A stretch of 21,651 nucleotides of DNA, taken from the NCBI GenBank assembly GCA_038893995.1, contig JAWAQK010000011.1:33199-54849 (forward strand). The letters run 5' to 3'. The notes under the pieces were generated by a model. That model worked only from the letters and a program-made list of their open reading frames with translations. It had not been told where the DNA came from and made no database searches. Source of the DNA: Candidatus Thorarchaeota archaeon. GTDB lineage: Archaea > Asgardarchaeota > Thorarchaeia > Thorarchaeales > Thorarchaeaceae. Made by a program: the position numbers and the translations under genes. Shown here piece after piece: positions 1,280 through 17,784 of the stretch. The first letter of the stretch is position 1. Every line of letters begins with the position of its first letter.

Positions 1280-1384
1280 GTTACTAGCCTCCGATAGCGG
1301 CTCTGATGAATGTTTTCCCATGGGTAAATTCCGACAGCGATAAGAAGGGGGGATACAACTAGCATGTGGATACCCGGGATTGAT

Positions 1385-2665
1385 ATGTCACAGACGACTG
1401 GTGGTAGTCGAGGACTCGAGACAAGAGACCCCATCTATGGGTACAATAGGCTCACCCCTCTAGAAGAGTCCATTCTCAACCAGAAGATCGTGCAGAGACT
1501 CCGACAGATCAGGACGCCAGCAGGAGCGTTCCAGGTCTACCCTGGGGCTGACTCGTCACTCCTTGCCAGGATGCTGGGGACCATGCATATCACGGAGCTC
1601 CTCTTCAGGAGTCTGGGTGCCAACGAAGACGAGGTCCAGAGGGCCAGGCTGACGGTCATGATATCTTCGGTGGGACGGGGGGCATGGTCAAATGTGATGA
1701 GGGAGTACCTGAGCGGTATTGGTCTCGATAATAGAAGAATGGCGGAGGTCGCCCTGGCACAACCTGAGATCAGAGAGGTCCTAGAACACAGTACCTACTC
1801 GACCAGTGAGATCAGGGAGAGCATTCGGCGGGGCGCTCCAATAAGAGACATGAGAGTGGACCTCTTCACGTGCCCGCTGAACCCAGACCTGATAGACATG
1901 TTTCAGCGTGATGCCTACTTCGCCGGTGTCCAATATGCCCAGCTCGAATTCAGACGTCTATTCGGCTCAACTCGTATCATCAAGAACAGGATGGCCGTGG
2001 AACGAGGGGTGCTTTTCACTCTGGAGTCGTACCTGTCTGCAGCAACAAACATGTTTGACGCCATCTACTACCACAAGACCGTAAGGGCTGCTGAGCTGAT
2101 GCTGCTCAGGGTACTGGAGGAGGCTGGCTCGCTGTTGCTCAGGTCGCCCGCCGACGACCCATCTACGTACTTCTCGACCGATGATATTACCCTGTACGGC
2201 AGTCTGAGTCGTCTCCCGCCGGATCCGCCGGAGAGGCTAGTGAATGCGTCCAATGTCTTTCGCGACTTCCACCGTCGCCGACTGATAAAGGTGGCAAGCG
2301 ATCGCACGATAGGAAACGACGAGTTCCTCAAGAAGCTGGAAACGCCAGATGGCAGATTCGAACTCGAACGTGAGATTGCAGAGGAGGCCAGGCTAGACCC
2401 AAACCTGGTCTATATTGATTTCCCGACTAGAGAATCTGTTGCATTCTGGCCCGGCAGACTTGCGATCGATGAACTGATGCTGTTTGAGAGGGGTTCCAGA
2501 GGTTATGAGCTATGGCCTGTCACCGACCTGAGTAACGTGGCGAGAAGCTTTATGCGCAGAGCAATGGTCATACGCATCTACGCGCCGGAAGCTCATCGTG
2601 CAAAGATACGCAAGAGGGCAGACAGTATACTTGAGTCCGTGGACAGTATCGGGGAGGTCGCCTAG
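1385..2665 (+). CDS. SAMHD1/dNTPase-like HD-fold protein with degenerate active site (probable pseudoenzyme)
   Basis: Scaffold motifs retained: RDPIYG, QRLRQI, VYPGA, DLIDMFQRDAYFAG, IYYHKTVRAAE. The usual HSLG reads RMLG and LLHDIGHGPFSH reads MISSVGRGAWSN. Start is 1385 or the in-frame 1364. Confidence 0.85.
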   Translation: MSQTTGGSRGLETRDPIYGYNRLTPLEESILNQKIVQRLRQIRTPAGAFQVYPGADSSLLARMLGTMHITELLFRSLGANEDEVQRARLTVMISSVGRGAWSNVMREYLSGIGLDNRRMAEVALAQPEIREVLEHSTYSTSEIRESIRRGAPIRDMRVDLFTCPLNPDLIDMFQRDAYFAGVQYAQLEFRRLFGSTRIIKNRMAVERGVLFTLESYLSAATNMFDAIYYHKTVRAAELMLLRVLEEAGSLLLRSPADDPSTYFSTDDITLYGSLSRLPPDPPERLVNASNVFRDFHRRRLIKVASDRTIGNDEFLKKLETPDGRFELEREIAEEARLDPNLVYIDFPTRESVAFWPGRLAIDELMLFERGSRGYELWPVTDLSNVARSFMRRAMVIRIYAPEAHRAKIRKRADSILESVDSIGEVA

Positions 2666-2822: not shown

Positions 2823-4217
2823 TTGGTCGAGTTGTTCACTTGCTCGAAGTGTGGCGAGGTCCTATACATCAGGAGCGCAGACCTTCGCGACAAGATATTG
2901 ACAATGGAGGTTCAGTGCCTCCGAGGGCATAGGAGTATCAGAAGACTGACTGAACATCAGGCCCATGAGATAGCCAAAGACATCTTCACCAAGCTGTTTG
3001 CGTGCACCCAGTGTGGTTCAGCTATGGTCCTGATAGCCACAGAGCCAATGGACGACAAGACTCAGGGGCTCATGCTGTGCCCAATTCACGGTATTCAGAA
3101 GAAGGACTATCCAAGCGAGTTTGCAGGCACAGTCGATGAACTCGCGCTGGATCTTTTTCAGGCCCAAAGGTCGCTGATTGACTCTTTCACGTGTCCTCAG
3201 TGCCGACAGACATTCGCGATAACAGAGATTCAGGCAGGCAGTGGTCCGTTTCTGATCATGTCAACAAGATGTTCAAACGGCCACAGGAACACGAGGTATG
3301 TCTCTCAGTCTGTCGATGATGAGCTATTGAGGAAGATACTGCAGAAACTTGTCCACTGCGACAGGTGTCTCATGCCATCTGAGCTTCAGACGACCGAGTC
3401 TAGGGGGTCAACAACAAGGCTCACAGTCTCATGCCCAATTCACGGTCCCTTGAAGAGGGATGTGCCGACTGGCATGGTCGAGAAGATAAGAGAGGCCATT
3501 GCCGATATGCCCAAGGATGCAGTGCTAAAGGCCACACTCTTGTCAAGTCAGTGTAACAGACCGATGTCCGTGATGAGGATCGAGCCTGACAAGAATGGCT
3601 ACAGACTCCGATGCACTTGTCCGGGTTCTGGCAGCTCTGTCACCAGGACCCTATCGATAGAGTGGGACCAGTCTGTCAGTAACAGGCTGGCGTCTGCCGT
3701 GCTGTCCTGTGAGTACTGTGGTCTTTTCACAGAGTTGTTAGAGGCGAAGACCAAGAAGGGCATGACAGAGTTCACAGTGGTCTGCCCGATACATGGCGTT
3801 CTATCTCGATTGGCACCCGAAGATGTGTATGGGCACATCAAGGAACAACTGCCGTCAATGGACAGGCTATCGTCCATGGTCAAGAGTCTCGGCTGTGGGC
3901 GATGCGGGATGCCACTGACTGTCAGGGATGTCGAGTACCGTGCAGGCCTTGTGGAATTCGACATGGAATGCAGGCACGGACACAGGGCCAAGAGATTCTT
4001 CGTTCCAGACCTCGACAGTGAACTGCTCGCCAAGTTCTACAAGAATCTGTATCGATGCCCCGAATGTTACGGTCCACTCGATCTTGTTTACACCCAACCG
4101 GGATCCAGGGAGTCAAAGGTCGTCCTCCTTTGCCCGGTCGACGGTAAGTTTGTACTGAATGTGCCACACGACCACGCCGAAGCCATTCGTCTCGCCTACA
4201 AGCAGATACAGGAGGAC
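2823..4217 (+). repeat. Four tandem ~117-codon units, each holding two Zn-ribbon modules
   Basis: CxxC knuckles start at aa 7, 61, 124, 179, 241 (degenerate SSQC), 296, 358 and 412; the odd series is spaced exactly 117 aa. The 15-mer TGCCCAATTCACGGT (CPIHG) is identical at 3078-3092 and 3432-3446. Confidence 0.85.
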
Positions 4218-5111
4218 CGCAGGAAGCCTCCGCAGGAGGTGGTAGAGAAGCCAGAACCTCTAGAGCTCGAACCAGCGGCTCCAGAAACTGTCACTGAGGG
4301 CCAAGTTACGGCCCTCAGAGGGTGTGAGATTGTCGGTGGTAAGTTTGAGTATAAGGTCAAGGTGAAGAATGACACCCAGTACGTGATAACAAATGTGACT
4401 GTCAGCATAGTGGCCTACCCGCAGGACTGCATGGAACTGGCCGGCGAGACCATGAGGACTATATCACGTATCGAGGTGGGTGGTTTCCGGAGCCCACAGT
4501 TTGTGTTCTATCCCACCAAGGACTGTGTACAGGGAAAGATCGTCGCCACGGTGTCCTATATTGACTTCAGGGACCAGCTCCACACGATCCAGGTGGAACC
4601 GTACCTCATCCGATCTGTGTGTGACCTGTTGAAGCCGAACAAGAAGACCGCTGAGGAGTTTGACCTCATCCTCGGATCATTGACGGGTGCAAATCAGGAA
4701 CAGGTACTCGAATGGAATGCTAGGGTACTGTTCACGAAGGCTGAGATGATACTCCCGACGAAGAACTTCCACATAGTGGACAAGAAGGAGAAGATTGTCG
4801 GGACCGAGTTCGTCGGTACAATCAGAGGCTTCGCATCCGGGAAGTACACCGGCAAGAATGTCGCAGTCATCATCCTGATCACGGGCCCAGAAGAGGGACG
4901 ACATGCGGTCGTTAAAGTAGAGGCGCTCGGGGACGATGTGGCCATGCTCCCGACCACCATAGATGAACTCGCCGAGACAATGGACTCGTGGATATGCTTG
5001 CGATGCGGAGCGCCACTCGACACCGAGCAGGTCGAGGAACTCGGAAAGCATGTGCCGATAAGCTGCAAGTACTGTGGTCACACCCTGACAATAGGGCTCT
5101 ATCTCCAGTAG
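2823..5111 (+). CDS. Multi-Zn-ribbon repeat protein with Pro/Glu linker, putative COP/adaptin appendage domain and C-terminal C4 Zn ribbon
   Basis: 762-aa ORF with a TTG start. Eight CxxC...CxxGH/CPIHG units in aa 1-465, linker KPPQEVVEKPEPLELEPAAPE, a beta-rich then alpha/beta region at aa ~495-720, and terminal CLRC...CKYC. Confidence 0.8.
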   Translation: MVELFTCSKCGEVLYIRSADLRDKILTMEVQCLRGHRSIRRLTEHQAHEIAKDIFTKLFACTQCGSAMVLIATEPMDDKTQGLMLCPIHGIQKKDYPSEFAGTVDELALDLFQAQRSLIDSFTCPQCRQTFAITEIQAGSGPFLIMSTRCSNGHRNTRYVSQSVDDELLRKILQKLVHCDRCLMPSELQTTESRGSTTRLTVSCPIHGPLKRDVPTGMVEKIREAIADMPKDAVLKATLLSSQCNRPMSVMRIEPDKNGYRLRCTCPGSGSSVTRTLSIEWDQSVSNRLASAVLSCEYCGLFTELLEAKTKKGMTEFTVVCPIHGVLSRLAPEDVYGHIKEQLPSMDRLSSMVKSLGCGRCGMPLTVRDVEYRAGLVEFDMECRHGHRAKRFFVPDLDSELLAKFYKNLYRCPECYGPLDLVYTQPGSRESKVVLLCPVDGKFVLNVPHDHAEAIRLAYKQIQEDRRKPPQEVVEKPEPLELEPAAPETVTEGQVTALRGCEIVGGKFEYKVKVKNDTQYVITNVTVSIVAYPQDCMELAGETMRTISRIEVGGFRSPQFVFYPTKDCVQGKIVATVSYIDFRDQLHTIQVEPYLIRSVCDLLKPNKKTAEEFDLILGSLTGANQEQVLEWNARVLFTKAEMILPTKNFHIVDKKEKIVGTEFVGTIRGFASGKYTGKNVAVIILITGPEEGRHAVVKVEALGDDVAMLPTTIDELAETMDSWICLRCGAPLDTEQVEELGKHVPISCKYCGHTLTIGLYLQ

Positions 5112-5156
5112 ATCATTGGCACGAGATCACGGCCTGCGGCACATGGTGGTTAAGGG

Positions 5157-5735
5157 TCAGTCCTCGCGCCACACGGCCTCGGCCCTGTCAACAAGACCAA
5201 GTACTACCATCAGTCTGTCGACAAAGGCGTTGACGAGGTCGTCGATGGTAGTGGGTCTGTGCCAGAAGGATGGGCACGCCGGAAAGACTATCGCGCCGGC
5301 CTCGGCGACTGTCAACATATTGCGCATGTGGATCATGTTGAGGGGTGCCTCCCTTGTAACAAGGACCAGACGTCTGCCCTCCTTGAGCGTACAGTCGGCT
5401 GCTCGAGCAATCAGATTGTTGGACAGTCCCTGCGCAATCGAGGCGAGGGTCTTCATGGAACAGGGAACAACCGCCATGCAGTCCAGCGGAAAGCTCCCAC
5501 TCGCAGGGCCTGCGTCCATTTCATCCTCGCCATAACAGTAGTCAGCCTCTGAACAGAGCTGACCATATCTCAGACCAGTTTCGTACTCAAGAGTTCGTTC
5601 ACCCCATGAGCTGATCACGAGGTGTGTTTCATGTCCAAGCGCTCGGGCCTTGCGAAGGAGATAGACACCGTAGATCGAACCGCTTGCTCCGGTCATACCG
5701 ACAAGGATGCGTTTCTTCTCCAATGGTCTGCACAC
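5157..5735 (-). CDS. ubiX: Flavin prenyltransferase UbiX/Pad1
   Basis: VGMTGASGSIYG, ASGS, VVPCSMKTLASIA, ARAAD, LKEGRRLVLVTREAPL and IHMRNM motifs; 192 aa. Confidence 0.95.
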   Translation of the reverse strand: MCRPLEKKRILVGMTGASGSIYGVYLLRKARALGHETHLVISSWGERTLEYETGLRYGQLCSEADYCYGEDEMDAGPASGSFPLDCMAVVPCSMKTLASIAQGLSNNLIARAADCTLKEGRRLVLVTREAPLNMIHMRNMLTVAEAGAIVFPACPSFWHRPTTIDDLVNAFVDRLMVVLGLVDRAEAVWRED

Positions 5736-12333: not shown

Positions 12334-13137
12334 TCAGCCGGTGGTTGTTCCGACCCTCTGGACATACGTTGGAGATATCTGCTCAAAGCCAATCAGGGCA
12401 ACTCCCGCGAGTAGGTAGGCCTCAACAGCTAGTAGTCGCACGGTGGGGTCAGTGGGACCGAGGACTACAAGGACAGATATGAGATCGCGCACCACAAAGA
12501 TGAATAGTGTCAGCGTGAGCACTGCAAATGGGACAGCAATTACACCCCCCCTAAACTGCCAAGTGATCACTATCAGAGACAGCAGTATCGTGACAACTGC
12601 CACTGACACTGGAATTGAAACAATGGTTTCGAGAATGTCACTTCGCGGCGTCATGACCATTAGGATGGCCCTCTCCGCGATCACGGTTGCGACAGTGACG
12701 ACCAACAGTAGCACCAGGGACTTCGGCATCTGCGCTGGACGGAGCGTTCTCATCAGTGTGAGTAGGTATGAAACTATGCCTGTCGTCCACAGGAGGACTC
12801 CGGGTATCTGTAAGAGTGTTACTGCAAAGTAGAAGAGGTGAGGGTCTTGAGTCACAGTCACTATCGAGGTCGCGCTCTCCGGCAGAGTCAACACGACCAG
12901 GCCTAGTGAGATTGTCAAGCACATGAAGTGCAGAATATCGGCACTAGTCAGCGCTCCACGCCCGAACAGCAGTACGCCGAACGTTCCTACAACGAGAGGG
13001 CATACTGGACCAACAATCAGAAGTAGGTCCCGGATCAGTTCGGGAGCGCCCACAGACAGGGCGTAGAGAGCGATCAAGGCCAAGAGCGACGCTGTCAGTG
13101 GCAGAACAGTGAGGCTCACTTTGAAAATCGTTTTCAT
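12334..13137 (-). CDS. Hypothetical integral membrane protein (about 8 TM helices)
   Basis: 267 aa made of eight hydrophobic stretches with short loops; co-oriented 65 nt downstream of the longin-domain gene. Confidence 0.75.
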   Translation of the reverse strand: MKTIFKVSLTVLPLTASLLALIALYALSVGAPELIRDLLLIVGPVCPLVVGTFGVLLFGRGALTSADILHFMCLTISLGLVVLTLPESATSIVTVTQDPHLFYFAVTLLQIPGVLLWTTGIVSYLLTLMRTLRPAQMPKSLVLLLVVTVATVIAERAILMVMTPRSDILETIVSIPVSVAVVTILLSLIVITWQFRGGVIAVPFAVLTLTLFIFVVRDLISVLVVLGPTDPTVRLLAVEAYLLAGVALIGFEQISPTYVQRVGTTTG

Positions 13138-13202: not shown

Positions 13203-14399
13203 TCAGACTACAGTCAGTGTATCCCAACCTACTTCGTAGACCGCACTCGGGTATCGTTCCTCTATGCTGTCTCTTGTCAACTCAACGAGTCGATTGGTGA
13301 CATTCCGTCCCACAATCCTGCTCATGCGCTTGGACAGGAACTGAAGTAGTGCCCGAAAACCCTCCTCGATGGCATCAGGAGATAGGATCCCTCTCAGCGC
13401 AGCTGCGAGGAGGGAGCCTTTGATGTCGACAGTGATGCCCTGTTCGATGTCCACAAATGCCAACCAGGGATGAGGACCTGATAACTCGTTTCGGGAATCA
13501 AAGAAGATCCGTCTGGCAGCAGACATACCTGCCATCTTGGAGAAGCCCTCTACGAGAGTCTGGACAACTGCTGTATACAATACGAGACGTGCCTGCGAAG
13601 GAGAGACTCGCTCCACCGCCTTTCTCTGGGCAAGGATGCCAATCTCAGTCAGAAACTTGCTGAAGTCGGATGTCTTGATTCGTTCTGCCGCTATGGATAG
13701 GGGAGTCTCACCATCCAGTTCTGGAATAGCTCGCACGGTATCCTCTGAAACATCAGGGACACCTGAGTTGGGTTGTAGTATTGATGTGGCCTGGTAGATA
13801 TCATCTGGCCTGATGGGTTGAAGTACCAGAATCGCCTTCTCCCACAGTGATCTGGCAGTAAGATTGATCACAGTGTCAATTGGGATTTCCAGGAACTCAG
13901 AGGCCTCTCTTACAGAACAGTTCTTCGGAAGCAGACTCAGAAATGCCCGGACCTCTGCATTATCGACGTAGAGGTCCCAGTTCAGCCGGGGACGGATTAT
14001 CGTGTCCTCGTTTATCTGTGGACGGATGAACTCGTCGATCACCACTTGCTCGAATCGGGTCCTGACGGCGAGGTCAATATCGACATGCTTGAGCAGACTG
14101 AACTGCTGCTCGAACTTCTCAATGACACGCCGTAGGCACTTCCTGAGAAACTCATTCTCGTTCGAGACCGAGAGGGCACCGAGCGTCCATTCCCCGAACT
14201 CGACCATGATCTTGTAGTCACTTCCCTCAAAGCCGCGAGCGGTCGAGACTTCAGACTGTTTGGACATGTCAAAGAAGCTCATGATCGCGACCAGTAACGA
14301 TGCCACAAGATGCGGGTCAATCGTGGACTCGGTGAAGTCCTTGTAGTAAAGACAGGTACCCGTCTTCAGCTTGATTATGTATAGGCTCTTGATGTCCAT
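13203..14399 (-). CDS. Longin-like domain + two winged-helix-like repeats + helical C-terminal domain
   Basis: N-terminal beta-beta-alpha-beta-beta-beta-alpha pattern: SLYIIK..GTCLYYKDF, IDPHLVASLLVAIMSF, YKIMVEFGEWTLGALSV, LRKCLRRVIEKFEQQF. Then ~70-aa repeats FLSLLPKNCSVREASE and AIPELDGETPLSIAAE. Confidence 0.75.
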   Translation of the reverse strand: MDIKSLYIIKLKTGTCLYYKDFTESTIDPHLVASLLVAIMSFFDMSKQSEVSTARGFEGSDYKIMVEFGEWTLGALSVSNENEFLRKCLRRVIEKFEQQFSLLKHVDIDLAVRTRFEQVVIDEFIRPQINEDTIIRPRLNWDLYVDNAEVRAFLSLLPKNCSVREASEFLEIPIDTVINLTARSLWEKAILVLQPIRPDDIYQATSILQPNSGVPDVSEDTVRAIPELDGETPLSIAAERIKTSDFSKFLTEIGILAQRKAVERVSPSQARLVLYTAVVQTLVEGFSKMAGMSAARRIFFDSRNELSGPHPWLAFVDIEQGITVDIKGSLLAAALRGILSPDAIEEGFRALLQFLSKRMSRIVGRNVTNRLVELTRDSIEERYPSAVYEVGWDTLTVV

Positions 14400-14565: not shown

Positions 14566-15171
14566 ATGAGTGAGGAGTTCAATCTCAATTGCCCAGTCTG
14601 CGGAGCGAGGGGCCTTAGAGTGAACTCGTCGATGGTCAGCATACCGTACTTCAATCAGCTCGCAATGTTCACGATCCACTGTGACAGCTGTGGGTTCAAC
14701 CACAATGACGTGTTCTCCACTGAAGAGAGGGAACCGTGCAGGTGGACCTACCGCGTCACGGGGGCTGCCATGCTCAATACCCGCGTCGTCAGGTCAGGAT
14801 CAGGCACCATACGAATCCCGGACTTTGGCATTGATGTGGAACCAGGACCATCGGCTGAGTCATTCATATCAAACGTGGAGGGCGTACTATTACGCATCAG
14901 GACTGTTCTCGAGGGCATTGTCGTGCTGGTCGAAAATGAGACCGAGAAGGATCGAGGTAGGGCCGTCATCGAGATGTTAGACCAGGCCATGGCGGGAAGT
15001 CTGCCGTTCACACTGGTGATTGAAGACCCTGCAGGTGTCAGCGCAATACTCCCCGACGACATGACCCAGGTCAAGTATGAACGATTGTCAAAAGAAGAGG
15101 CTGCAAGCCTCAGGGGCGCCCCCAATTGGCTTCAGGAGGTCCGCGAGGATCTTATGGACGGCCGCTCCTGA
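14566..15171 (+). CDS. ZPR1-family zinc finger protein (archaeal single-module form)
   Basis: CPVC...IPYF...CDSCGF, LNTRVVRSGSGTIRIP, VEPGP...FISNVEGVL and TLVIEDPAGVS. Confidence 0.93.
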   Translation: MSEEFNLNCPVCGARGLRVNSSMVSIPYFNQLAMFTIHCDSCGFNHNDVFSTEEREPCRWTYRVTGAAMLNTRVVRSGSGTIRIPDFGIDVEPGPSAESFISNVEGVLLRIRTVLEGIVVLVENETEKDRGRAVIEMLDQAMAGSLPFTLVIEDPAGVSAILPDDMTQVKYERLSKEEAASLRGAPNWLQEVREDLMDGRS

Positions 15172-15405: not shown

Positions 15406-17784
15406 ATGCAACTGTTCGAGACTTTCAACAGCATGGCAGACATCGAGAAGGCGATGATTCTGACTGTCATTGCAGCAGCCTTCGCCAGTCTCGTCTATGC
15501 ATGGTGGCTCCGAAAGGGAGTACTTGCACTGCCAAAGGGAACCGAGCAGATGCAGAGGGTCTGGAACGGAATAAGAGAGGGAGCACTGTCCTATCTGAAG
15601 AGACAGTTGAAGAGTATAATACCCATTCTCGCAGTCCTCACATTCCTTCTGTTCTTCACGGTCTACGTGACGGTTCCCGAGAGAGGTACACTGGAGCTGT
15701 TCGGCAACACGCCTGAGGGCATTGCCACCGCACGAGTTGTGGTCGGTATAGGTCGGTCGCTGGCATTCCTTCTTGGGGCCAGTTTCTCCCTAGCTGTGGG
15801 ACAACTTGGGATGAGAATCGCGGTCGAGTCAAACATCAGGGTTGCGCAGGCCACAAGAGAGGGTGAGGACCGATACAACCGAGCGCTAACAATCTCATAT
15901 CGCGGTGGGACCTTTACTGGAATGTTGACGGATGGCCTCGGACTCCTGGGTGGCACCTGCATATTCATCATCTACGGGATTGCAGCACCGGATGCATTAC
16001 TTGGCTTTGGTCTCGGAGGTACACTCCTGGCTCTCTTCATGAGAGTCGGTGGTGGAATATACACCAAGGCTGCAGATGTCGGTGCAGACCTCGTGGGCAA
16101 GGTCGAGCAGGGACTCCCAGAGGACGATCCCAGAAACGCAGCCGTCATAGCTGACCTTGTCGGAGACAACGTAGGAGACTGCGCAGGAATGGCTGCAGAC
16201 ATATTCGAGTCCTACGAGGTGACCATTGTCTCTGCGCTTATCCTGGCAATAGTACTGTACCTGGATCCGCTGTTCCACGCAGCTGCACTGCCTGGCGGAG
16301 CCTTCGCTGTGGTCGTGTTTCCGCTGTTCGTGAGAGCAGTCGGTGTGATCTCGTCTATGATCGGTACATTCATGGTACCGGTCTGGCCTCGCCTCTTCAG
16401 GAAGCGGTCGGTCTACGCGGAGAAGGCCATGTTCTTGTCCTACGAGGCCTCAAGCATCTTCACAATAACCATCACGATGCTACTCTCGTGGTTCTATGTT
16501 GGCGATATCAGATTCGGCATTCTTGTTGCAGTCGGAGTCATGCTGGCAGTCTCGTTCAACCCCATAACCAGCTACTTCACTTCTCTGAAGAAACCCCCTG
16601 TGAAGGAGATCGTACACTCTGCTGATACGGGTACGGCAACATTCATCCTGTCCGGACTCGTGGCCGGCTATGAATCGACCGTTGCAGCATTGGTCGTAAT
16701 CGTCACGACCTTCGGGATATCGACAGTGCTGTTCCTACCCGCAGTTGCTGGAGCTGCAGCTCCACTCTTCGTACCAGATGTGGCCGGAACCCTGTGGACA
16801 CTCTACGGGATAGCGCTCATCGGTATTGGAATGCTGTCTCACACGGGCAACAATGTTGCAATGGACTCGTACGGGCCCATCAGCGACAATGCTGCGGGGA
16901 TAGGGGAGCTGTCACCTGGGGACTTTGATGAGGAGTCTCGAAGGGTCATGGCGGAGCTGGATGCAGTCGGAAATACGACCAAGGCGATCACAAAGGGCGT
17001 GGCAATAGCGTCGGCTGTCATCGCAGCTGTCAGCCTCTTCGATAGCTTCGTGGTTGTTGCAGGCATTGAGCATCTCATTCTCGACCACCCACTCGTCTTC
17101 TCAGGCGTGCTGCTTGGTGCGGCGCTGCCATGGCTGTTCTCTGCGTTCAACATCAAGGCAGTCACTCGAGCCGCAGGCGAGATGGTCAGAGAGGTGCGCA
17201 GGCAGTTCCGGATACCTGGAATTCTTGAGGGGACTGTCAAACCAGACTACGCTCGTGCCGTATCGATATCCACGATTGCAGCCCAGAAGGAACTCATCTC
17301 GTTGGCACTGCTGTCAGTGTCGGTCCCGCTCCTCGTTGGAATACTCTTCGGAGTGGAGTCCATGGGAGGCTTCCTTGGTGGTATTATAGTCTCGGGTCAG
17401 CTACTTGCCGTATACATGGCAAACGCTGGAGGTGCCTGGGACAACGCCAAGAAGTGCATCGAGGATGAGCCGAGAGACCCACAGCACAATATGGGAAAGG
17501 GATCTGAGCGCCACAAGTGCGGGGTTGTTGGGGACACCGTTGGAGATCCGCTCAAGGACACAGCAGGTCCGGCACTCAACCCAATGATCAAGGTTGTCAA
17601 CCTCGTGAGCCTCATACTGGCGCCGGTGCTGGTACAGTTCTCTTGGGGTTCGAGTCCGGAGGCCAATATGTACCTCCTGTTGGCATTGTTTGTGCTCGTC
17701 CTCCTCACAATCTGGAGCATCAAGAAGAGCACCAAGCCCGCTGACTTTGGAGCAGGGGCCGGCTCAAGTTCCGGTCCCAAGTAG
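15406..17784 (+). CDS. hppA: Membrane-integral pyrophosphatase, K+-independent type (probably H+-pumping)
   Basis: GGGIYTKAADVGADLVGKVE, EDDPRN, DLVGDNVGD, GPISDNA, DAVGNTTKA (Lys at the K+-dependence site) and GDTVGDPLKDT. SD GGTGA lies 7 nt upstream of the ATG. Confidence 0.96.
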   Translation: MQLFETFNSMADIEKAMILTVIAAAFASLVYAWWLRKGVLALPKGTEQMQRVWNGIREGALSYLKRQLKSIIPILAVLTFLLFFTVYVTVPERGTLELFGNTPEGIATARVVVGIGRSLAFLLGASFSLAVGQLGMRIAVESNIRVAQATREGEDRYNRALTISYRGGTFTGMLTDGLGLLGGTCIFIIYGIAAPDALLGFGLGGTLLALFMRVGGGIYTKAADVGADLVGKVEQGLPEDDPRNAAVIADLVGDNVGDCAGMAADIFESYEVTIVSALILAIVLYLDPLFHAAALPGGAFAVVVFPLFVRAVGVISSMIGTFMVPVWPRLFRKRSVYAEKAMFLSYEASSIFTITITMLLSWFYVGDIRFGILVAVGVMLAVSFNPITSYFTSLKKPPVKEIVHSADTGTATFILSGLVAGYESTVAALVVIVTTFGISTVLFLPAVAGAAAPLFVPDVAGTLWTLYGIALIGIGMLSHTGNNVAMDSYGPISDNAAGIGELSPGDFDEESRRVMAELDAVGNTTKAITKGVAIASAVIAAVSLFDSFVVVAGIEHLILDHPLVFSGVLLGAALPWLFSAFNIKAVTRAAGEMVREVRRQFRIPGILEGTVKPDYARAVSISTIAAQKELISLALLSVSVPLLVGILFGVESMGGFLGGIIVSGQLLAVYMANAGGAWDNAKKCIEDEPRDPQHNMGKGSERHKCGVVGDTVGDPLKDTAGPALNPMIKVVNLVSLILAPVLVQFSWGSSPEANMYLLLALFVLVLLTIWSIKKSTKPADFGAGAGSSSGPK

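Follow-up and report, generated by a model that had tools for sequence, protein, structure and literature searches.

A zinc-ribbon protein of Thorarchaeota ends in a predicted appendage domain that is most probably a distant homologue of coat ears

The window considered here is the whole stretch of DNA that was analysed, 21,651 nucleotides of contig JAWAQK010000011.1 from a Candidatus Thorarchaeota archaeon (assembly GCA_038893995.1; host genome of 2.33 Mb in 82 contigs, 91% complete). It contains an open reading frame (ORF) whose product consists of an array of small zinc modules, a hinge, a domain resembling the appendage, or ear, of vesicle-coat subunits, and a terminal zinc ribbon (Table 1). 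A sequence-only reading had assigned such an appendage to positions 4299-4982, and this segment is in frame with the gene and encodes residues 493-720. Full-length orthologues of 759-790 residues, aligned from residue 1, were present in all eight sampled genera of the same family. The close homologues that carry names are all Thorarchaeota entries called 'hypothetical protein', from metagenome-assembled genomes.

Table 1. Features of the ear gene in the window and the second ear protein of the host genome (AF2, AlphaFold2; pLDDT, predicted local distance difference test)
Feature	Residues	Coordinates	Strand	Basis or remarks
Whole gene: zinc-ribbon array, hinge, ear-like domain, terminal zinc ribbon	762 in total	2823..5111	+	ORF, TTG start
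N-terminal array of eight small zinc modules	1-468	2823..4226	+
Pro/Glu-rich flexible hinge	469-494	4227..4304	+	composition; pLDDT 44-54; 25% mean orthologue identity
Ig-like beta-sandwich subdomain of the ear	495-605	4305..4637	+	AF2 model; ear alignments; 84% identity
Alpha/beta platform subdomain of the ear	606-721	4638..4985	+	topology a1-b1-a2-b2-b3-b4-b5-a3
Terminal C4 zinc ribbon, CLRC ... CKYC	722-762	4986..5108	+	same conserved module as ear
Second ear protein of the host genome, contig 20		L002:1492-3762	-	signal-like helix, small PKD-like ectodomain, membrane helix, helical repeats, ear and ribbon

In the N-terminal array, the pattern CxxC...CxxGH alternates with CxxC...CP(I/V)(H/D)G; module 5 is degenerate. 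The zinc ligands are invariant across 47 orthologues, and in a full-length AlphaFold2 model each module folds as a three-stranded sheet plus a helix (pLDDT 80-94). The array gave no match to a solved fold and is not a beta-propeller, and a Pfam hmmscan assigned its modules to no ubiquitin-binding finger family. The hinge holds 6 Pro and 7 Asp/Glu within 26 residues and has an isoelectric point (pI) of 4.05. Its composition, together with pLDDT values below 55 and the low orthologue identity, agrees with the Pro/Glu-rich hinge that had been read from the sequence. Across the 47 orthologues, mean identity was highest in the sandwich (84%), the terminal ribbon (76%) and the platform (70%), against 47% in the zinc array and 25% in the hinge. 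Constraint is thus strongest on the C-terminal module, and the hinge has the character of a linker. The terminal ribbon had gone unmentioned in the sequence-only reading and belongs to the same module as the ear; it gave weak Pfam matches to DUF7479 and double zinc ribbon families. Overall the protein is close to neutral in charge (pI 6.35), with a pI of 8.2 for the zinc array.

The fold of the C-terminal module was predicted with AlphaFold2 for residues 493-762, using an alignment of 45 diverse relatives. The model was of high confidence, with a mean pLDDT of 96.1 and a predicted template-modelling score (pTM) of 0.81. It contains a beta-sandwich (model residues 3-113), an alpha/beta unit (118-229) and the C4 zinc ribbon (pLDDT 93-97). 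The alpha/beta unit is a five-stranded platform that directly follows the sandwich, and its last helix ends at residue 721. Sandwich and platform thus occur in the order that had been read from the letters, and at nearly the same boundaries (residues 495-605 and 610-721 in the model). When the model was compared with the PDB by Foldseek, the top matches were all ears. The alpha ear of AP2 (1w80_A) was found with an E-value of 8e-10, and chain H of the coat protein complex I (COPI) structure 9qpq, which from its residue numbering we infer to be beta-COP, gave template-modelling (TM) scores of 0.66/0.72 and a root-mean-square deviation (rmsd) of 3.6 Å. The beta2 ear, the gamma-COP ear and beta-COP 5nzr_B ranked next. 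The earlier choice of beta-COP as the best match thus holds structurally. The sandwich aligned to those of the alpha, beta2, beta-COP and gamma-COP ears and to TRAP-beta. Both subdomains superposed jointly on the solved ears, and whole-ear matches outranked those to single subdomains. Sequence identity in these alignments was low, 13-15% to beta-COP and 6-16% across the ears. Since the platform is present in the model, an Ig fold without a platform, which would have spoken against an appendage, is not what was found. The domain is confidently predicted to be a bipartite appendage of Ig-like sandwich plus platform and not a bare Ig or CARDB domain.

A link to the known ears at the level of sequence came from other Asgard proteins. 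The Pfam family Alpha_adaptinC2 (PF02883; cut-off 27.6 bits) was searched against 400 Asgard genomes and gave matches in 11 of them at 21-26 bits, below the cut-off. Most of these were Lokiarchaeial proteins of about 328 residues with the same sandwich-platform-C4-ribbon layout as the window module. This stand-alone ear family scores 21-25 bits on Alpha_adaptinC2, and relatives as a whole 19-25 bits, again below threshold. A profile of the window family gave 28-35 bits for five of seven of the ~328-residue proteins and 11-16 bits for the other two. Alignment of the two families by hhalign gave a probability of 96.8% and an E-value of 2e-10 over 235 columns that cover all three parts of the module. 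Two of the Alpha_adaptinC2 matches, L022 and L023, are themselves members of the window's own ear family, scoring 63.8 and 61.7 bits with its profile. L023 (L023:91-2493, plus strand; Lokiarchaeial genome G267) encodes 801 residues, with N-terminal zinc ribbons, DDRGK/E3_UFM1_ligase/PCI winged helices, the ear (matched over residues 471-726) and a C-terminal VPS28 domain (VPS28-C; 27.4 bits, cut-off 24.5). This one protein physically links the window ear family to parts typical of the endosomal sorting complex required for transport (ESCRT). From its match and its architecture it follows that the window ear is a member of the previously published 'adaptin appendage' domain family of Asgard archaea, even though Pfam fails to recognise it, and its sequence kinship with ESCRT-linked Asgard ears is established. 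In the ESM Atlas the nearest named clusters were eukaryotic adaptin/COP ears (0.76-0.79), which is a lead only. Given that whole ears superpose and that a Pfam bridge exists, though below threshold, we infer that the window ear is most probably a distant homologue of the COPI and adaptor protein (AP) appendages.

We then turned to the distribution of the module. Searched exhaustively with phmmer, 1.84 billion cluster representatives (clusters at 50% identity) yielded 389 clusters at E <= 1e-3, of which 150 reached E <= 1e-30. Proteins of the 150 listed clusters range from 133 to 2867 residues, and most carry the module at or near the C-terminus. The N-terminal partners include ectodomains of several kinds, among them SBBP beta-propellers, beta-helix/NosD, PKD, TSP3 and DUF2341 domains. 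At least one membrane helix was predicted upstream of the ear in 103 of 141 representatives (~73%) and in none of the remaining 38. Those with a helix comprise 48 that look single-pass and have a large N-terminal part, 20 with a short anchor and 35 multipass proteins. Between the last membrane helix and the ear there are usually 23-70 residues. Of the 141 proteins, 108 terminate with the module, and in 92 the C4 pattern follows the platform. Ears borne by unrelated receptors are 57-63% identical to the window ear. Named members come from Thor-, Hel- and Lokiarchaeota. Of the 400 Asgard genomes, 180 have a match to the module; within the window's own family the figure is 77 of 85. It also occurs in families f17-f23 and f30, in some only in part (11 of 14 genomes in f21, 74 of 135 in f22), and was not found with the window-ear query in families f8, f10, f11, f13 and f14.

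The host genome holds two copies of the module, the window gene and a membrane protein of 756 residues on contig 20. In this paralogue, basic residues follow the membrane helix, which fits a cytoplasmic ear. About 250 of its residues are helical and possibly form winged-helix-like repeats, with no Pfam match. Minimal forms, made of a short membrane anchor, a linker, the ear and the ribbon, occur elsewhere as tandem arrays of three to four genes (L012:4752-9354 and L013:3744-9291); a gene for an EamA-family transporter is interleaved at the same position in both arrays. A paralogous Thorarchaeota family (P0002, P0003, P0006, P0012) has a helical N-terminal part followed by two tandem ear-ribbon modules, and was not found in the 91% complete host genome.

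The gene neighbourhood is well conserved. In most or all of eight genera of the family, genes for an M28 peptidase and an HD-associated protein precede the ear gene, and those for a flavoprotein (minus strand), DUF2070, PadR and two ABC transporters follow it, in this order. The gene directly upstream (1364-2665, plus strand, 433 residues) is co-directional with the ear gene and holds the same place in all eight sampled genera; its sole match is 'HD associated region' (PF19276). A plus-strand ORF of 139 residues at 5116-5535, 5 nucleotides past the stop codon, was considered as an operon partner and rejected. It overlaps a minus-strand gene at 5157-5735, which encodes a flavoprotein (PF02441, 143 bits), is the conserved gene at this place and scores far higher in all syntenic loci; the plus-strand ORF is therefore probably spurious. 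Further downstream lie two minus-strand ORFs without a Pfam match (12334-13137, 267 residues; 13203-14399, 398 residues), the second of them partly conserved in the syntenic loci, then a gene for a ZPR1-type protein with a zinc finger and a jelly-roll (14566-15171, plus strand; PF03367, PF22794) and an H+-pyrophosphatase gene (15406-17784). There is no sigma-/mu-like or longin partner among the gene neighbours, and neither the window protein nor the conserved neighbourhood contains a Vps28-C, steadiness box or longin domain of the ESCRT system. The neighbours are of housekeeping type despite the synteny across eight genera, and we therefore draw no functional link to them.

Taken together, these data lead us to favour, with moderate confidence, a soluble scaffold in which eight zinc-ribbon modules are joined by a flexible hinge to a rigid ear/ribbon docking module; the ear would be a distant homologue of coat ears, and the protein would not be a coat subunit of the eukaryotic type. 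Ear domains are interaction hubs of eukaryotic vesicle coats. By analogy, the ear described here may offer a protein-docking surface, and the acidic, proline-rich hinge would act as a flexible tether between it, with its zinc ribbon, and the zinc array. Many surface and multipass proteins of unrelated kinds carry the same ear, at 57-63% identity, after their membrane helix and therefore probably present one docking handle to a common cytoplasmic partner. In this simplest model the window protein would connect that partner to a ligand of the zinc array or else compete for the partner. The most likely role of the ear is thus, by this analogy, that of a docking module common to many membrane proteins and to a soluble zinc scaffold.

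Several results weigh against this explanation. No ear family was detected by Pfam hmmscan, either in the whole protein or in the isolated ear. Searches of all PDB sequences with phmmer and with the family hidden Markov model gave only weak zinc-ribbon noise, and Alpha_adaptinC2, Coatamer_beta_C, Coatomer_b_Cpla and B2-adapt-app_C matched nothing in the whole host genome at E <= 10. All structures of the module used here are predicted and none is solved. VPS28 was not found in the host genome (91% complete), and the two Snf7/ESCRT-III genes that exceed the Pfam cut-off there lie on other contigs. The HD-associated protein, the flavoprotein, DUF2070, PadR and the ABC transporters beside the ear gene give no clue to trafficking. 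Finally, the platform motif FxxxW, which holds the ligand-binding Trp of the gamma-COP, beta-COP, alpha and beta2 ears (PMC2262067), was absent from the window ear in a sequence-pattern check; platform helix 1 reads F613xxxL617, and just 3 of 45 family rows contain any FxxxW. It may be, therefore, that the ligand site of eukaryotic ears is not conserved. The missing motif bears on conservation of that site and not on the fold. As for sequence, no significant direct profile match to the COP or AP ear families was obtained for the window protein; the connection is the transitive, sub-threshold bridge only. The sequence-only reading had regarded the domain as the accessory-recruiting module of vesicle coats, and this was overstated. 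There is neither a solenoid trunk nor a coat context, and because the ear sits mainly on the cytoplasmic tails of membrane proteins, a coat-module role is not supported. The window protein does not qualify as a coat subunit of the eukaryotic kind.

We considered three other explanations. A more specific version of the docking hub would make the protein a cargo adaptor linked to ESCRT or to a ubiquitin-like system, in effect a functional analogue of ESCRT-0. The ear would dock onto machinery of ESCRT-I/II type, and the zinc ribbons, like the NZF fingers of Vps36, would bind either cargo or a ubiquitin-like mark. The fusion of a same-family ear to VPS28-C and to UFM1-ligase/PCI-like winged helices in the Lokiarchaeial protein L023 speaks for it, as do the two Snf7/ESCRT-III genes of the host; moreover, in Makarova 2024 (PMC10936438), Asgard combinations of zinc ribbon, ear, longin and Vps28-C associated with ESCRT are proposed to be ESCRT-0 analogues. 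Yet Pfam detects no Vps28-C, steadiness box or UEV domain in the window protein, ESCRT genes are absent from both the window and the syntenic loci, VPS28 was, as noted, not found in the host genome, and the zinc modules resemble no ubiquitin-binding finger family. We therefore regard this version as unlikely.

The similarity to coat ears could also be one of fold only, an Ig-like sandwich joined to a helix-grip or TBP-like domain without common ancestry, serving another function such as binding of lipid (as in KA1 domains) or nucleic acid. The identity to ears of only 6-16% would be compatible with such convergence, and automatic annotation at JGI lists the orthologues as RpoP-like zinc-ribbon proteins. 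The hhalign result and the Pfam bridge, however, point specifically to Alpha_adaptinC2, and related archaeal ears matched beta-COP and beta2 with an HHpred probability of 98% in Makarova 2024 (PMC10936438). Nucleic-acid binding in particular is unlikely because the charge of the protein is near neutral and most relatives are tethered to membranes. A generic fold thus appears to us quite improbable.

Very improbable, finally, is a true proto-coat subunit, that is, a forerunner of the COPI/AP large subunit whose zinc array takes the place of the solenoid trunk and whose ear recruits accessory factors to a budding membrane: the C-terminal hinge-plus-ear layout recalls adaptins, beta-COP is the best structural match, and homologues of all AP/COPI domains are scattered among Asgard genomes according to Eme 2023 (PMC10307638), but no HEAT/alpha-solenoid trunk was found, the N-terminus consisting of zinc ribbons without a solved-fold match, the operon offers no sigma, mu or longin partner, the same ear occurs mostly on membrane proteins and hence on the cargo side and not the coat side, and FxxxW is absent from the window ear.

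Returning to the scaffold with a docking ear, one may extend it into a broader scheme, which we offer as a speculation with little chance of being right in full. The ear plus ribbon would be a universal cytoplasmic sorting handle on dozens of unrelated surface receptors and transporters, gathered by one cytosolic machinery, ESCRT-like or proto-coat, of which the zinc-array protein would be an adaptor or regulator. If this were true, the coat ear would have originated on the cargo side and would have moved onto coat adaptors later, during eukaryogenesis.

Ears of this class have been described before. Asgard proteins that combine Vps28, an adaptin/COPI C-terminal domain and a UFM1 ligase, which is the layout of L023, are described in Liu 2021 (10.1101/2020.10.19.343400). 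Archaeal and Asgard adaptin/COPI ear-like domains are likewise reported in Eme 2023 (PMC10307638), and Makarova 2024 (PMC10936438) reports Methanosarcinales proteins with ear plus zinc ribbon and ear-TM-GOLD (TM here standing for transmembrane), this paper being the source of the HHpred match to beta-COP and beta2 cited above. The domain, read from the sequence as a candidate eukaryotic signature protein, is therefore not the founder of a new class of such proteins, and since the class is known the gain is incremental. It lies in how the protein is built, in where the module occurs and in the bridge by sequence to ESCRT-linked ears already published. An arrangement of eight C3H zinc modules, hinge, ear and ribbon was not found in the available portions of Liu 2021, Eme 2023 and Makarova 2024, and a full-text search of the papers available retrieved none that describes the eight-zinc-module architecture or presents Asgard ears as general cytoplasmic tails. 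Ears being interaction hubs of coats, identifying the binding partners of the archaeal ones offers direct access to the question of how membrane trafficking began. For this, the ear and ribbon of ~270 residues (493-762) make a rigid, highly conserved and tractable reagent.

Comparison with known systems places the window protein as follows. The GAE and platform domains of BBS2/7/9 in the BBSome scored lower than the COPI/AP ears (global TM score 0.14-0.18 for the whole protein), and the N-terminal zinc array is not a beta-propeller. The AP2 alpha and beta2 ears (1w80, 3hs8, 1b9k, 1e42, 3h1z; Alpha_adaptinC2, Alpha_adaptin_C, B2-adapt-app_C) and the AP-4 beta platform (2mj7) have no Pfam match from the window protein; relative to the AP2 ears the rmsd of 4-5 Å reflects a different angle between the subdomains. 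The beta-COP appendage (9qpq chain H residues 724-953; 5nzr_B, named beta-COP in Table S3 of PMC10936438; Coatamer_beta_C and Coatomer_b_Cpla) is 13-15% identical, again without a match to the Pfam models. In contrast to beta-COP, the window protein has no solenoid trunk and no FxxxW, and it has an additional C4 zinc ribbon. The COPI and AP large subunits carry a HEAT/alpha-solenoid trunk within a tetrameric adaptor; the window protein, in which Adaptin_N has no match, has eight zinc-ribbon modules instead. The contrast with eukaryotes is clear because the ear is here borne by membrane proteins and by a zinc scaffold and not by a coat trunk. Among archaea, Meth_adaptin (arCOG15284) comprises ear plus zinc ribbon, ear with a transmembrane linker and ear-TM-GOLD, a likeness by description (PMC10936438). 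Although the window protein differs from the Asgard 'adaptin appendage' fusions with Vps28-C, longin or UFM1-ligase parts in having no ESCRT domain and no ESCRT neighbourhood, its ear belongs by sequence to the same domain family as theirs.
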